4,985 nucleotides of DNA. It comes from a virus. Its lineage: Duplodnaviria > Heunggongvirae > Uroviricota > Caudoviricetes. The stretch lies in the IMG/VR virus record IMGVR_UViG_2684622620_000008; one strand, written 5' to 3'. The position numbers were made by a program, and so were the translations under genes. The first letter of the stretch is position 1; each line of letters begins with the position of its first letter. Positions 1 to 4,985 of this stretch are shown here, piece after piece. The notes under the pieces are model-generated. The model searched no databases and was not told the origin of the DNA. It saw nothing but the letters and a program-made list of their open reading frames with translations.

Positions 1-546
1 CAGTGCAATGCTGTCCAGAATACGCGTGACCTGAACGCCTGAAATCCCAAAGGCAACAGTGACCGTCAGGCATTCCTTTGTGAAATCATCGACGCAGGTA
101 AGACACTTGATCCTGCGACCGGTGGAAAGTGCGTCCATGACGAAATCCATCGACCAGGTCAGATTGGGCGCCGCCGGACGGAGCAGCGGCAGACGTTCTG
201 TTGCCAGCCCTTTACGACGTCTTCTGCGTTTTACGCCCAGGCCACTGAGGTGATAAAGCCGGTACACGCGCTTATGATTAACATGAAGCCCTTCACGGCG
301 CAGCAACTGCCAAATACGACGGTAGCCAAAACGCCTGCGCTCCAGTGCCAGCTCAGTGATGCGCCCTGATAAATGCGCATCAGCAGCCGGACGGTGAGCC
401 TCATAGCGGCAGGTCGACAGGGATAAACCTGTAAGCCTGCAGGCACGACGTTGCGACAGACCGGTCGCATCACACATCAACATCACGGCTTCCCGCTTCT
501 GGTCTGTCGTCAGTACTTTCGCCCAAGAGCCACCTGAAGCGCCTCT
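1..546 (-). CDS. IS3-family transposase OrfB (DDE catalytic domain), 5' part only; expected to be expressed as an OrfAB fusion by -1 frameshift
   Basis: My own translation of the minus strand in the frame ending at 511-513: RGASGGSWAKVLTTDQKREAVMLMCDATGLSQRRACRLTGLSLSTCRYEAHRPAADAHLSGRITELALERRRFGYRRIWQLLRREGLHVNHKRVYRLYHLSGLGVKRRRRRKGLATERLPLLRPAAPNLTWSMDFVMDALSTGRRIKCLTCVDDFTKECLTVTVAFGISGVQVTRILDSIAL, with no stop down to position 1. It is -1 relative to OrfA, overlaps the OrfA 3' end (513-546), and contains the first D-containing motifs of an IS3-type DDE transposase (WSMDF, CVDDFTKE). The 231-473 ORF in the supplied track is a different frame and is not this gene. Confidence 0.85.
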
Positions 547-773
547 TTATCCAGCATGGCTTCGGCAAGCAGCTTCTTGAGTCTGGCGTTCTCTTCCTCA
601 AGCGACTTCAGGCGCTTAACTTCAGGCACCTCCATACCGCCATACTTCTTACGCCAGGTGTAAAACGTGGCATCGGAAATGGCATGCTTGCGGCAGAGTT
701 CACGGGCGGGTACCCCAGCTTCGGCTTCGCGGAGAATACTGATGATCTGTTCGTCGGAAAAACGCTTCTTCAT
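510..773 (-). CDS. IS3-family transposase OrfA (helix-turn-helix DNA-binding and leucine-zipper part)
   Basis: 87-aa ORF MKKRFSDEQIISILREAEAGVPARELCRKHAISDATFYTWRKKYGG...LEEENARLKKLLAEAMLDKEALQVALGRKY. The N-terminal HTH followed by heptad leucines is the conserved OrfA architecture of IS3/IS407-group elements, and it is immediately followed by the -1 OrfB frame. Confidence 0.9.
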   Translation of the reverse strand: MKKRFSDEQIISILREAEAGVPARELCRKHAISDATFYTWRKKYGGMEVPEVKRLKSLEEENARLKKLLAEAMLDKEALQVALGRKY

Positions 774-908: not shown

Positions 909-2087
909 TTAGCTGGCTTTAATTTCTCCATGGGGAACGACAACCCAATCTATATGATTTTGCGTGTAGATCTTGGTTGACTTCGCATCGCTGTGCGCCA
1001 TTCGTCCTTGTGGATCGATACCCTGCTGATCGAATAGATGCGCTGCTAGTGCTCGAATTTCGTGAAAGGTTGGTCTTTCATCCATTGGTAGATTGTCGCA
1101 TAAACCTAGTTTGTCCCGTGTAGCTGAAAACGACCTACTCAAATAGTCCGGTGCAACTTGAGTAGGATGTGAAACCTCTTTGCTGCGTTTAACTTGGCGT
1201 TCTGGGATCCTGTGAACGACAAACGGACTGGCCACATTATCTCGGCTATCGTCAATTATCCGTTTCAACTCTTCACCAATTGGTATTGCAACGTGTGACG
1301 CCTCTTTTTGTTGCACTTTTTGCCTGTGGATGTAAAGCGTCCCATATATGCCATTTTGTGGTTGTTCGAACCAGACACATCCACATATACCGTCTTTAGG
1401 TTCGCGAATTGAGTAACGGATTCGCGATACTTCGAGTCGTGCATGTGTAGTCTGCAATGCTAGGTCCATTGCTGTTCTTAACCATGGTGCAGCGGCCTGC
1501 CTGATAGCTATAAAATGCTCGAGTGACAGGCGCCGTCTTTTCTTCTCATCAGTCCTACGCATTTTTTTTCTGATGGCCGGGTTATCCAGCATTAGTGATT
1601 CATCGACCGCATAAGAGAACAACTTTTTAAGAAAGCTGACCTTTCTGTTCTGCACATTTGCGGATGCGCTGGCATGATATTTGTTGATGTAGGTATTAAC
1701 GTGTTCAAGTTCGATATCGCATGCCGGAACATTTACGAAAAACGCTTTTACGCGTAGAGCGTCATTTTTCCAGTTATCTAAGGTGCTCTGGGAAGGACGT
1801 TCGTCTTCGATAATTCGGGCCATTATGTGATCAACATGTTCAGCAAATGGTTTTGCTTCTCCGATAACACCGCCAGATTCTCTAATAAGATTATCTACTG
1901 ATGGAGATAATTCTGGTCGCATCCTCAGGTTGTACTCTCTGGCGATTGCAATGGCTATTGCCCTATCCTTACCTATATTTTTCTTCTTTCCGGTAATAAG
2001 TGTGAATTTATAAACACCTCGATCTTTATCAAAAATCAGATAATCAGGAAGATGTCTGTATTCTTTTTTACGTGGCCTTGCCGCCAT
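909..2087 (-). CDS. int: Phage tyrosine integrase, lambda Int type (N-terminal arm-binding domain plus C-terminal catalytic domain)
   Basis: The N-terminus MAARPRKKEYRHLPDYLIFDKDRGVYKFTLITGKKKNIGKDRAIAIAIAREYN parallels lambda Int (MGRRRSHERRDLPPNLYIRNNGYYCYRDPRTGKEFGLGRDRRIAITEAIQAN). The C-terminal motifs HEIRALAAHLF and MAHSDAKSTKIYTQ match the lambda HELRSLSARLY and LGHKSDTMASQY catalytic His/Arg/Tyr box. GAGGGG lies 8 nt before the ATG at 2087; the supplied ORF begins two codons earlier at a GTG (2093) that overlaps the xis stop, and either start is possible. Confidence 0.9.
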   Translation of the reverse strand: MAARPRKKEYRHLPDYLIFDKDRGVYKFTLITGKKKNIGKDRAIAIAIAREYNLRMRPELSPSVDNLIRESGGVIGEAKPFAEHVDHIMARIIEDERPSQSTLDNWKNDALRVKAFFVNVPACDIELEHVNTYINKYHASASANVQNRKVSFLKKLFSYAVDESLMLDNPAIRKKMRRTDEKKRRRLSLEHFIAIRQAAAPWLRTAMDLALQTTHARLEVSRIRYSIREPKDGICGCVWFEQPQNGIYGTLYIHRQKVQQKEASHVAIPIGEELKRIIDDSRDNVASPFVVHRIPERQVKRSKEVSHPTQVAPDYLSRSFSATRDKLGLCDNLPMDERPTFHEIRALAAHLFDQQGIDPQGRMAHSDAKSTKIYTQNHIDWVVVPHGEIKAS

Positions 2088-2299: not shown

Positions 2300-2360
2300 G
2301 GCTGTTTCTCCACTTAACCCGCTGCACACGGGCAGTAATATCAAATTTCAGTCCTGATAA

Positions 2361-2576
2361 TTAATTTTGTTCTATGGTTGCTACCTGTTTAATTGGCCTG
2401 ATGCTGTCCAGGAGCAGTCGGCGGCGCGTATTTTCTGCAAAGTGGCGGCGTCCGGTTTCTTTGTGGTAAAACTCGTTTTTTCCGACGACCCACATCCGCT
2501 TTGTCTGGTGCAGTTTTTTTACCTGCGGACCGTTTCGGGTAATAACAATTCCTGTATGAGTTTTTATCACGCTCAT
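2361..2576 (-). CDS. Hypothetical small basic protein (71 aa), function unknown; lambdoid early-accessory (ea-region) gene
   Basis: ORF MSVIKTHTGIVITRNGPQVKKLHQTKRMWVVGKNEFYHKETGRRHFAENTRRRLLLDSIRPIKQVATIEQN. Its ATG (2574-2576) overlaps the TGA of the upstream gene (2573-2575) in an ATGA arrangement, which argues for real, translationally coupled expression. It has the same orientation as the operon. I do not recognise the family. Confidence 0.5.
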   Translation of the reverse strand: MSVIKTHTGIVITRNGPQVKKLHQTKRMWVVGKNEFYHKETGRRHFAENTRRRLLLDSIRPIKQVATIEQN

Positions 2577-2935
2577 TTCTTATTCTCCGGTGCTTTCGGC
2601 ATTACTGCCCAGTGAGTGATATTGACGTTTTCAAGGTCCCCGACCTGAAATGTCCACTGCCATTCTCCGGTTTCTTTTTGCCCCCATGTGTACCAGAGAG
2701 AACGCCAGCCAATCAGCCAGCCTTCTCCGTTAACATCAAATAACAGAACACTTTCATTTGCTGGTGGCAGTTCAGCTGACACTGGTATTACTTTGTTTTC
2801 CAGTGCTGCACATTTAGCTTCAAGCGCATCTAATTTACGCACCAGGTATTCAGCATCCGTTTCATTCACTTTCAGGTCTCGTGGTACACATCTCCCGCGA
2901 AGAAACCCTTCCATTTCGAAAACATTCATGCGCAT
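2573..2935 (-). CDS. yfdS: DUF551-like phage protein, YfdS homolog (N-terminal coiled-coil segment, C-terminal Trp-rich domain)
   Basis: 120-aa ORF. The C-terminus GEGWLIGWRSLWYTWGQKETGEWQWTFQVGDLENVNITHWAVMPKAPE has the Trp-rich ...THW.MP.P signature that I associate with DUF551 proteins of lambdoid prophages. Length and position after yfdR match K-12 yfdS as I recall it. An alternative start is the ATG at 2927-2929, which overlaps the yfdR stop (ATGA). Confidence 0.7.
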   Translation of the reverse strand: MRMNVFEMEGFLRGRCVPRDLKVNETDAEYLVRKLDALEAKCAALENKVIPVSAELPPANESVLLFDVNGEGWLIGWRSLWYTWGQKETGEWQWTFQVGDLENVNITHWAVMPKAPENKK

Positions 2936-3462
2936 TTTCGTAACTCCGATAACTCGTGAAAGCGTTCCATAAACATCCCGTAGGCATGGCCCGGTGGCAT
3001 TGGAATCACGTTGAACATCTCTGTTGCCGGGATGCCTTCCAGTACCGGCCAGAAAGAGCCATCATCAAGCCCGAGATCGCGGCGTTCGGTTGCCAGCATA
3101 ATGAGATCGGCATATTTCACTGGCGTGCTCATAACAGGAGGTAACCCGTATTTCTCACGGATTACGGCGTCTATTTTTTCTTCCATCCGTTTATAGTCAG
3201 GAAGAAGGCGTTTCAGTGGCGCGGGGATGTCCTGGCAATATGCTTCTGTTGCATCATGCATTAACGCTTCAAAAGCAAATTCCTGCTGCACCAGCTGGCT
3301 GCAAAGCACCGCATGTTGGGCGACACTGTAGAAGTGTGAAAGATGACCGGCAAAGCGACAGATATTTGAAAGGGAAACCGCGATATCGTTAATCACGATG
3401 TCGTCTTTATTTATCCTGTCATAATAAAAATGCTTCCCGGAAAAAGTTTTAATAAATGACAT
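2926..3462 (-). CDS. yfdR: HD-domain phosphohydrolase (YfbR-like 5'-deoxynucleotidase family), YfdR homolog
   Basis: 178-aa product from the ATG at 3460-3462 (MSFIKTFSGKHFYYD...), preceded by GGAGAACAAA. HD-domain motifs are visible: H..H in RFAGHLSHFYSVAQHAV, HD in ALMHDATEAY, and downstream acidic residues (KYADLIM, ERRDLGLDD). Length and position match K-12 CPS-53 yfdR as I recall it. The supplied ORF starts 10 codons earlier at an ATG with no RBS. Confidence 0.85.
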   Translation of the reverse strand: MSFIKTFSGKHFYYDRINKDDIVINDIAVSLSNICRFAGHLSHFYSVAQHAVLCSQLVQQEFAFEALMHDATEAYCQDIPAPLKRLLPDYKRMEEKIDAVIREKYGLPPVMSTPVKYADLIMLATERRDLGLDDGSFWPVLEGIPATEMFNVIPMPPGHAYGMFMERFHELSELRKCA

Positions 3463-3555
3463 TTTGTTCTCCGCGTATATGTGCTGCACCACGCTGAATT
3501 CTGGTAAAAGGAAGCCCTCACCATCCGGCGATTATTGAGTCAATTACGTTTCCAT

Positions 3556-3589: not shown

Positions 3590-4414
3590 TCAGGCGGTGA
3601 AAGTACCAATAAAGGTTTCTACTTTGCTGTCCTTGAATTTCTCAACAAGCAGATCACGAAATTCGTTAGCCATTTCTTCCTGCACTGCTTCCAGCTGAAT
3701 AATGCGCAGAACCAGTACAGGACGATCGCCAGTGATAATGCTGAGGCGTAATTTAAATGGACGTTCTTTCAGGCCTTCAAACGGAACGCATTTAAATTCA
3801 AATGCCACTGGCATAATGTCTTTGGTCTTCGCTTCGACAGACTCCATCAGGGAGCGTTTGCCGCTGAAGTCATTATCTTCAAAATCAGCGGTCTGGTTTG
3901 CTTCAATCGTGATTTTACGGACAGCCGCAGCCGCTTTTGTTGCCTGAATAGCGTCACCATTAGCATCAAAGCCCACAAGGTAGTCGGCCCAGTCTTCAAT
4001 CCATTCTGCCAGTGACTTCTGGGAATTACGCTCGCCATTAACAGACAACAGAGCAGAGAACGGTGCTGTCTTTTTCAGTTTGAGAGTGGCGGTGTTATCG
4101 GCGTGACCTGGTTCATCAATAGTACCCAGGTTAAGAACACTGACGGCACGCATATTATCAGCATCGATAAAGCAGCGGGTGCCTTCATCTGCAAGATCTT
4201 TAGAATAACAGGTAAAGTCATCGATGCTGGCAGTGGAAAGCGCACCACGGAAACGGAAGCGATTTAAATTAAATTTTTCCAGATCATGAATGCGGAAATT
4301 CTCAGGCAATGCCACAGCATCGGCACCAATCTTACTGATAATTTCATTAACACCCTGAGCAGAAATAAGAGCATGGATTTGATTAATTGCGGTTGCGTCT
4401 AAGTTCTGAGACAT
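3590..4414 (-). CDS. yfdQ: Prophage protein YfdQ homolog (I recall it as a DUF2303-type protein), function unknown
   Basis: 274-aa [28 protein letters not shown]... with GAGGA 7 nt upstream of the ATG. Length and position immediately upstream of yfdR match the K-12 CPS-53 yfdQ-yfdR arrangement as I recall it. Confidence 0.8.
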
Positions 4415-4479: not shown

Positions 4480-4842
4480 TTAATGACCTGCTGCGCGAAG
4501 TTTTCCGTCAGGTTCACCGGCAAGAGTCAGTAATTGTCCCTGGTCTTCCTGCAGAATAGTCAGGCGACCACCGCGATTGACATACATCGGCGTTTCGGTG
4601 GTGTCTTCTTCAGAAATTTTCCCGCGGTTAGTCGGGCGAACATATGAGAGTTTGTGTTTGATTTTCACACGGTTCTCATCAAACGGTTCGATTTCCAGAT
4701 TGAGTGAGACCTTCCCTTTGGTTTTCGTGTTCATCACACCGGAAGCGACTTCACTGAGAACTGCGCCGATTTTGGTTTCAAATACGCCGCCGTCCAGCTC
4801 CCCGATAAATGCCTGCACATCAGTACTGCGTTCGCTAGCCAT
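4480..4842 (-). CDS. yfdP: Prophage protein YfdP homolog, function unknown
   Basis: Start taken at the ATG at 4840-4842 (MASERSTDVQAFIGELDGG..., 120 aa), which is preceded by GAGGAGCAGCAAA. The supplied ORF begins 6 codons earlier (4860), at an ATG that overlaps an upstream frame's TGA, so a translationally coupled 126-aa form is an alternative. Confidence 0.7.
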   Translation of the reverse strand: MASERSTDVQAFIGELDGGVFETKIGAVLSEVASGVMNTKTKGKVSLNLEIEPFDENRVKIKHKLSYVRPTNRGKISEEDTTETPMYVNRGGRLTILQEDQGQLLTLAGEPDGKLRAAGH

Positions 4843-4856
4843 TTTGCTGCTCCTCA

Positions 4857-4985
4857 TCATATCGACCCTGCAAGGCCGATTAGTTTCTCCACAAAACAGA
4901 GAAGAACACCTGCGGTGGCAGCCGCCCGGATGGATTGGGTTATGAGCCCGTCGTCCGGTGATGCTCTTCTCTGTTTTGTAAAAAG
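4857..4985 (-). CDS. Possible 3' end of an upstream minus-strand gene running off the window (partial)
   Basis: The minus-strand frame ending at the TGA at 4857-4859 is open to the window edge (about 42 codons, ...ITQSIRAAATAGVLLCFVEKLIGLAGSI*), and its stop overlaps the first ATG of the yfdP ORF (ATGA). The yfdP frame is also open to the window edge, so the coding assignment here is uncertain. Confidence 0.25.
   Translation of the reverse strand, partial: LFTKQRRASPDDGLITQSIRAAATAGVLLCFVEKLIGLAGSI
4891..4979. repeat. Inverted repeat, 17-bp arms with one mismatch, about 55 bp apart, upstream of yfdP
   Basis: 4891-4907 ACAAAACAGAGAAGAAC pairs with the reverse complement of 4963-4979 (GCTCTTCTCTGTTTTGT gives ACAAAACAGAGAAGAGC). 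The interior is GC-rich with further short inverted segments (CACC...GGTG, CCGGA...TCCGG). Confidence 0.5.

Follow-up and report, generated by a model that had tools for sequence, protein, structure and literature searches.

Cassette-like behaviour of ORF71, a small basic protein gene of the phrog_1226 family in a CPS-53-like prophage

The ORF71 locus

This study concerns ORF71, a small open reading frame (ORF) on the minus strand of a 4,985-nucleotide stretch of DNA from the Caudoviricetes record IMGVR_UViG_2684622620_000008 of IMG/VR. We refer to the whole stretch as the window. The genes on the minus strand have the order yfdP-yfdQ-yfdR-yfdS-ORF71-xis-int and make up the early-left operon of a CPS-53-like prophage; ORF71 is its final cistron ahead of xis-int (Table 1). 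We find that ORF71 is a conserved gene under purifying selection, that it belongs to a catalogued family whose function is unexplained, and that it behaves as a self-contained cassette with breakpoints at the edges of the gene. For its product we tentatively favor a role as an accessory early protein that binds a polyanion, most plausibly DNA.

The ORF71 protein is strongly basic, with seven Lys and eight Arg residues against one Asp and four Glu (net charge +10, isoelectric point (pI) 11.3). Its residues 1-61 form a conserved domain that is predicted to consist of five beta strands, and residues 62-71 form a variable tail that is predicted to be disordered. An earlier reading of the window from its letters alone, called here the sequence-only reading, described a basic minus-strand ORF of 71 amino acids (aa) that is fused through ATGA to an upstream DUF551 gene. 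The sequence agrees with this description, though the DUF551 match of the upstream protein is marginal (E 4e-4, 21.6 bits against a cut-off of 22); its phrog_583 match is strong. The junction on the minus strand reads ...CCG GAG AAT AAG AAA TGA, which overlaps ATG AGC GTG. Thus, the ATG and the TGA have three bases in common, and the overlap between ORF71 and the upstream 120-aa gene is 4 nucleotides (nt).

Table 1. Features of the window. Coordinates of xis and int are from RefSeq calls on records with an identical module; E. coli C7, which has a different xis/int module, was not used.
Feature	Position	Strand	Basis or remark
ORF71	2361..2576	minus	71 aa, ATG start; phrog_1226 member; RefSeq coding sequence (CDS) at identical coordinates
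Start/stop overlap ATGA of yfdS-like gene and ORF71	2573..2576	minus	TGA 2575-2573, ATG 2576-2574; read from the sequence
Shine-Dalgarno-like GGAG	2585..2588	minus	8 nt upstream of the ORF71 ATG, within the 3' end of the yfdS-like gene
ORF71 variable 3' end, codons 62-71 and stop	2361..2393	minus	blastn breakpoints; predicted local distance difference test score (pLDDT) 38-62 in the tail
Antisense 82-aa ORF, TTG start	2367..2615	plus	rival named by the sequence-only reading; not a gene
yfdS-like gene (DUF551, phrog_583), 120 aa	2573..2935	minus	96% identical to K-12 YfdS, residues 1-117
yfdR, 5'-deoxynucleotidase, HD family	2926..3462	minus	97% identical to K-12 YfdR; phrog_318; RefSeq
yfdQ (DUF2303)	3590..4414	minus	Pfam E 8e-92; 99% identical to K-12 YfdQ
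yfdP	4480..4842	minus	99% identical to K-12 YfdP; RefSeq
Spacer, 61 nt, from ORF71 to putative xis	2300..2360	minus	
Putative excisionase, 69 aa	2090..2299	minus	by position, directly upstream of int; RefSeq "hypothetical protein"
int, tyrosine integrase with lambda-type arm-binding N-terminal domain	909..2087	minus	Pfam Arm-DNA-bind_1 E 5.8e-6, weak integrase-domain matches; RefSeq

ORF71 is a conserved protein-coding gene

Because the window has many ORFs of 60-120 aa in non-coding frames, the length of ORF71 is by itself not above chance, and its significance as a gene rests on conservation instead. About 100 related loci were gathered from RefSeq E. coli genomes, GenBank phages, PLSDB plasmids, GTDB genomes and IMG/VR. 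The ORF71 frame is fully open in 98 of the 100; the two exceptions are a copy cut at residue 49 on a 461-bp contig and one long multi-domain form. A codon-level comparison was made for 16 diverse alleles over a 62-codon core. Here the third codon position dominates the pairwise differences, with 1547, 1349 and 3531 at positions 1, 2 and 3. When each relative is compared with the window, the ratio of nonsynonymous to synonymous divergence (dN/dS) falls in the range 0.07-0.22 in 12 of the 13 cases with unsaturated dS and reaches 0.35 in the most divergent relative, a conjugative-plasmid copy. The sense frame of ORF71 is under purifying selection.

RefSeq calls precisely the ORF71 coding sequence and names it "hypothetical protein" (WP_032219794.1, WP_001100814.1, WP_021548839.1), and the loci L021-L023 encode a protein identical to it. 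The 71-aa allele of the window type is intact in 14 IMG/VR loci as well as in RefSeq genomes. Frameshifted copies of family members are found occasionally in databases (e.g., P0095, P0097 and P0127), which is expected since prophages carrying such genes decay. We consider it nearly certain that ORF71 is a genuine, translated gene.

One could argue that ORF71 is not a functional protein gene, being either a chance frame or the reverse of the true element, which would be the antisense ORF at 2367-2615 or an RNA. Chance ORFs of similar length are common in the window, as noted above, and in the window, as in some close relatives, no stop codon interrupts the antisense frame. However, the antisense frame has one or two stop codons in nine of the 16 diverse relatives, is without a Pfam match and has a PHROG match at chance level (E 0.34). 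It is the sense frame that is conserved, and the antisense ORF, which the sequence-only reading had put forward as the possible conserved one, is ruled out by its stops and by the lack of a meaningful family match. An RNA element was rejected as well, since an Rfam scan gave no family match in or near ORF71. With purifying selection on the sense frame, protein-level homologues down to about 40% identity and a confident folded model of the product (see below), this reading is effectively refuted and its probability is negligible.

The phrog_1226 family and its distribution

The sequence-only reading could not assign ORF71 to any family. This did not hold up: ORF71 falls in phrog_1226 and is already annotated in RefSeq. 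In the comparison with the hidden Markov model (HMM) of phrog_1226, residues 1-65 align with profile positions 1-65 of 67 (E 2.3e-40, 137.7 bits). ORF71 has the length class and the basic charge of this family, along with its signature K-T-H-T-G ... W ... Y-x-K-x-t-G-x-R ... R-L-L-L-x-s-I-x-P. The common form of phrog_1226 has 67 aa, whereas ORF71 has 71 aa with the last ~10 residues derived from another mosaic module. The domain is also embedded in phrog_7520, phrog_5148 and phrog_4183. Among 33 diverse members, with identity down to about 26%, residues T6, H7, W29 and G42 are invariant, and Y37, L54 and L56 are nearly so.

Membership in phrog_1226 names ORF71 but leaves its function unexplained. 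Family members are called "hypothetical" in every source. ORF71 has no meaningful match in Pfam, NCBIfam or PADLOC, and none of the 33 diverse members has one in Pfam. Searches of the PDB by sequence and by profile returned chance matches only (E 0.3-0.8). A literature search with three RefSeq accessions of family members and the PHROG identifier found no paper, and a modelling review of the exo-xis region has no description of the ORF71 protein (PMC8614690).

The family is widespread. A word-indexed search gave 103 relatives, mostly of 66-71 aa, in Escherichia, Klebsiella, Citrobacter, Raoultella and Salmonella, and a full HMM scan of 1.84 billion representatives gave 91 clusters at 50% identity. 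Similar DNA is present in 832 of 5426 complete E. coli genomes (about 15%), often in cryptic prophages. By TBLASTN, 102 deposited phages have a homologue; 62 of them are phages converting to Shiga toxin (Stx) 2a. Phages of Klebsiella, Yersinia, Erwinia and Cronobacter have one too. Family members are also carried by 445 plasmids, including ~90-100-kb plasmids with phage-like genes (such as ead/Ea22-like ones), IncI/K plasmids and large conjugative plasmids of Klebsiella.

One such plasmid, pO111-CRL-115 (IncK2/Z; L004), has an intact 63-aa homologue with 41% identity at 6001-6192, a few genes upstream of trbA. This homologue is missing from the PLSDB gene table, where an ORF on the other strand (5860-6069) is given in its place. 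Matches at the level of this homologue are seen in about 217 conjugative plasmids. Copies with 58-92% identity were also found on short contigs in Sutterella, Sphingobacterium and Microbacterium assemblies (L007, L008, L018). These contigs are probably mis-binned or contaminants and would then not reflect the true host range.

Mosaic structure of the locus

Comparisons at the DNA level define the edges of the conserved unit. In blastn alignments with loci that carry the common 67-aa allele, homology extends from yfdS to position 2392 of the window, inside codon 62, and then ends. The stretch in common with the Stx phage PA2 is 2566-2395 only, i.e., codons 4-61. These breakpoints at codon 62, together with the PA2 overlap, establish that the conserved unit is a 61-residue domain. 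In prophages with the 71-aa allele but other excisionases, homology ends at 2303-2305, just before the xis ATG. The tail of ORF71 and the 61-nt spacer travel together and are joined to at least three different xis/int modules. The difference in length between the 71-aa and 67-aa alleles is explained by this tail-plus-spacer module, to which the 10-residue tail of the window allele belongs.

Family members are not bound to the locus next to xis, as the sequence-only reading would have it. Relatives follow genes for DnaC-like proteins, DnaB, DUF977 proteins, Dam methylases and 3'-phosphoadenosine 5'-phosphosulfate (PAPS) reductases, and others are found on the conjugative plasmids described above. 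The ORF71 gene thus behaves as a self-contained cassette. It provides a clean example of mosaic exchange, in which small cistrons appear to be traded as translationally coupled cassettes in phage early operons. In the E. coli alleles P0061, P0065 and P0073, the N-terminal 14 residues of the window protein and the C-terminal 'RRRLLLDSIRPIKQVAT.EQN' are kept while the middle has diverged (about 70% identity overall). This suggests that recombination may take place inside the family gene as well as at its edges.

Several database entries appear as fusions to Cro/YdaS, DUF977, PAPS reductase or YfdS (P0016, P0058/P0094, P0026, P0103). Deletions that joined two adjacent genes best account for these entries, since what is fused to the domain is the gene normally found upstream of it, and the KTH motif has disappeared. 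They were not used as functional evidence.

In most related loci, the stop codon of the ORF71 homologue overlaps by 4-8 nt the start of a 79-83-aa gene of phrog_1344 (E 2e-52). This partner is seen at L005 (4197-4436), L002, L014-L016 and most IMG/VR loci, and the pairing holds in Kluyvera prophages (about 70% identity) despite a different upstream gene. It is absent in the window. ORF71 and the 79-aa phrog_1344 protein might together form a two-gene module; ORF71 would have been orphaned here when the xis-int module took the place of its partner, and perhaps left with little or no activity. The window allele departs from the 67-aa allele exactly from codon 62 on, the place where the overlap would lie. 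However, the two genes are not always paired. The window type and the loci L010, L012, L013, L017, L006 and L004 have other downstream genes and an open frame, and the 71-aa allele is intact in the 14 IMG/VR loci and the RefSeq genomes mentioned above. A "Rosetta-stone" link between phrog_1344 and the 'DDGCD' (DDGCDY) N-termini of fused relatives was also tried and rejected, since BLASTP detected a 10-residue motif only and the profile-profile comparison with hhalign gave 11% probability over 8 columns. We regard an orphaned half-module as quite unlikely.

Junction with the upstream gene

The 4-nt ATGA overlap at the start of ORF71 is retained in related loci behind about a dozen distinct upstream genes. 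These encode YfdS, a 292-aa PAPS-reductase/NinC-like protein (Stx phage PA2), a 249-aa DnaC-like protein (Kluyvera), DUF977 proteins and other unrelated ORFs of 148-208 aa. Where Dam-like methylases lie upstream, one of the three has the ATGA overlap of 4 nt and the other two overlap by 1 nt. A Shine-Dalgarno-like motif at a spacing of 4-10 nt is present in 18 of 24 distinct upstream contexts.

The sequence-only reading took the ATGA start as an argument for real expression and proposed to check the frame and the junction in related prophages. Both are conserved, and the retention of the junction behind so many unrelated genes argues for the expression of ORF71. The geometry of the junction argues strongly for co-transcription of the yfdS-like gene and ORF71. 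Scans for promoters and terminators did no better than chance and gave no site between yfdS and xis, and for this reason a promoter or terminator of its own for ORF71 was rejected. Translational coupling of ORF71 to the yfdS-like gene is probable, judging from the arrangement of the codons. The ribosome that terminates yfdS at the ATGA junction would initiate ORF71 by coupling, aided by the GGAG 8 nt upstream.

Comparison with K-12 CPS-53 and lambda

The window is 96-99% identical to CPS-53 of K-12 across yfdP, yfdQ, yfdR and yfdS. Identity to K-12 YfdS ends at residue 117 of 120, and divergence falls in the last three yfdS codons (about 2573-2585 in the window; 4865-4874 in L003). After this point K-12 continues with yfdT-ypdJ-torI and the window with ORF71-xis-int. 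The yfdS stop marks a point at which modules are swapped. K-12 YfdT (101 aa) resembles ORF71 in its slot directly after yfdS and in having a start that overlaps the yfdS stop, but the two sequences are unrelated (BLASTP E 3.5 over 3 residues). On this ground ORF71 was rejected as a YfdT homologue, and the sequence-only reading was right to distinguish the two.

YfdR of K-12 binds DnaA, and in multicopy, yfdQ and yfdR combined with either yfdS or yfdT inhibit initiation that depends on DnaA (PMC4776307). ORF71 occupies the yfdT slot of a cluster that is known to interfere with the initiation of host replication, and this gives a testable context for its function.

In position, ORF71 is like the lambda exo-xis (ea) proteins, which are encoded by small early leftward cistrons just before xis-int. 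The lambda exo-xis proteins are small, dispensable early proteins, and more generally the products of the region are small and act early to modulate development and the replication of the host (PMC10834534, PMC8614690). One of them, Orf60a, has been modelled as a small beta-sheet DNA binder (PMC8614690). In sequence, ORF71 has no counterpart among Orf55, Ea8.5, Ea22, Orf61, Orf63 and Orf60a (best BLASTP/TBLASTN E 0.7-7 over 6-9 residues), and the family HMM found nothing in the six-frame translation of the 27.7-32.1 kb region of lambda (best E 0.96). Homology to the lambda exo-xis proteins or to Xis was rejected, as all three methods were negative. Unlike the lambda proteins, the ORF71 family is also found in nin-type regions and on plasmids. 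ORF71 corresponds to the lambda ea genes in position only and is not their homologue. Thus, the sequence-only reading, which had placed ORF71 where the ea genes lie, was correct as to position, that of the last early-left cistron before xis, while a relationship to the ea proteins is not borne out. Small accessory early proteins are a known class in lambdoid elements, and ORF71 adds one more member to it.

Predicted structure

An AlphaFold2 model of ORF71, built from an alignment of 30 sequences, is all beta, with a mean pLDDT of 87 and a predicted template modelling score of 0.72. The strands are predicted at residues 7-13, 16-24, 28-32, 35-38 and 53-61, and a basic loop of 14 residues (39-52) connects strands 4 and 5. 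The C-terminal tail has low confidence (Table 1), with residues 69-71 below 50.

In a Foldseek search of the PDB the best match had E 1.6, below significance. There is weak resemblance to small beta-barrels (Tudor, SH3, Sm and WYL types); since no match to SH3/Tudor/Sm-like barrels is significant, we do not claim membership in this group. Foldseek against viral models returned only uncharacterised phage proteins (TM score up to 0.79, 24-32% identity). These matches probably extend the family to phages of Pseudomonas, Cronobacter, Erwinia and Serratia. It is notable that the predicted fold is a confident one and yet appears to be without a solved relative.

The best solved structural neighbour is MicN of Salmonella (PDB code: 7XL7). 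MicN is similar to the ORF71 model in that it is small, has five antiparallel beta strands and comes from a lambdoid prophage-type region (the Gifsy-1 region). MicN binds RpoS, but it is acidic, whereas ORF71 is basic, and we therefore treat the likeness as a lead only. ORF71 is not counted among MicN-like sigma-factor binders. An excisionase or recombination directionality factor was rejected too, because ORF71 is predicted to be all beta and not winged-helix, and because relatives are found far from int/xis.

Possible functions of ORF71

All 33 diverse members of the family are basic (pI 9.5-11.3, net charge +3 to +10). Since only T6, H7, W29 and G42 are invariant among them, the charge is a selected property. 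Longer relatives that retain the KTHTG motif join the domain to modules of the helix-turn-helix type. P0108 and P0132 have an extra N-terminal segment, and that of P0108 matches the phrog_323 "transcriptional regulator" (E 4.6e-11). The phrog_4183 proteins (~225 aa, 57 clusters; P0121, P0206-P0249; L101 5001-5669) are predicted to consist of three modules. These are an N-terminal piece 'DDGCDY..ILW.MNA.ARARTRS', the beta domain, and a C-terminal domain (pLDDT about 90) whose order a1-b1-a2-a3-b2-b3 is the winged-helix pattern in the predicted model. In Klebsiella prophages the phrog_4183 gene lies directly after O-like and DnaB-helicase genes. More generally, family relatives directly follow replication genes (O-like and DnaB, DnaC-like, DUF977) or DNA-modification genes.

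From these clues we infer, tentatively and with somewhat less than even confidence, that ORF71 is an accessory early protein that binds a polyanion, most plausibly DNA. In temperate phages, on ~95-kb plasmids and on conjugative plasmids, recombination puts the ORF71 cassette behind varied early genes as a coupled cistron, and the mosaic joint at about 2392 has created the disordered tail of 10 residues in the window allele. The domain would bind a polyanion, possibly RNA if not DNA; made soon after induction or entry, it would be an accessory factor and not an essential one.

A close rival is that ORF71 is a small protein-protein modulator, which would bind an acidic host or defence protein and shift host physiology early after induction. 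Examples of such targets are RNA polymerase or a sigma factor, DnaA, or an anti-phage system. In this it would be like other small proteins of lambdoid early regions. We consider this reading possible though on the whole unlikely. The suggestion of the sequence-only reading that small basic proteins at this locus are often host-interaction factors is speculative for ORF71.

Small host-killing proteins are known from the equivalent operons of lambdoid prophages. ORF71 is a small basic protein in an early-left operon, and this circumstantial likeness would fit a growth-inhibiting, Kil-like early protein or toxin that arrests a host process or excludes other phages, as the sequence-only reading suggested. 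However, there is no conserved adjacent partner that resembles an antitoxin, and the neighbours vary on both sides. No toxin match was found in PADLOC, Pfam or NCBIfam. Moreover, about 15% of complete E. coli genomes carry the gene, frequently within cryptic prophages, and frameshifted copies turn up only now and then. A toxic role is thus very unlikely, and ORF71 as a component of a toxin-antitoxin system or of a known anti-phage defence was rejected, given that no model matches and no partner gene is conserved.

A more ambitious reading than polyanion binding as such would be that the small basic beta fold of the phrog_1226 domain is structurally new and serves mobile elements of Enterobacterales as a portable early effector. 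In CPS-53-type prophages it would replace YfdT in the YfdQRS module that restrains DnaA-dependent initiation. It could, for example, act as a DNA/RNA-binding anti-defence factor or as a replication-control factor, carried by temperate and Stx2a phages, large plasmids and IncI/K conjugative plasmids. This reading we regard as unlikely.

In itself, ORF71 is an ordinary finding, namely an already annotated hypothetical protein of a catalogued PHROG family that is present in a large share of E. coli genomes. However, the family is widespread in prophages, Stx2a-converting phages of enterohaemorrhagic E. coli, and ~95-kb and conjugative plasmids, and it has no Pfam entry. A single biochemical study could thus lead to the annotation of thousands of genes.

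Neighbouring genes and other observations

The sequence-only reading placed ORF71 upstream of xis. ORF71 does directly precede the 69-aa ORF that adjoins int, while the label xis itself comes from position and weak matches. These are to the phrog_629 excisionase (E 0.008) and the DUF4817 helix-turn-helix domain (E 0.0045); BLASTP gave no match to lambda Xis or TorI. We refer to this ORF as a putative excisionase, mainly because of its position.

The stop region of yfdR and the start of yfdS overlap by 10 nt (2926-2935). The mechanical ORF list is over-long for two genes: it starts yfdR at a GTG at 3492, against 3462 in RefSeq and K-12, and yfdP at an ATG at 4860, against 4842.

Just past the 3' end of int lies an IS3-family element, or the 5' part of one; other strains carry different DNA there. 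Rfam identifies IS1222_FSE, the programmed-frameshift element of the IS3 family, at 426-543 on the minus strand (156.6 bits, E 1e-33). This match overlaps the 3' end of an 87-aa ORF like transposase orfA (510-773, minus strand). In E. coli C7 (L001 1256-2572), a related prophage with another xis/int adjoins a DarT/DarG-type pair (NADAR antitoxin) and a second, degraded integrase, which suggests that the attachment site in C7 holds a composite island.
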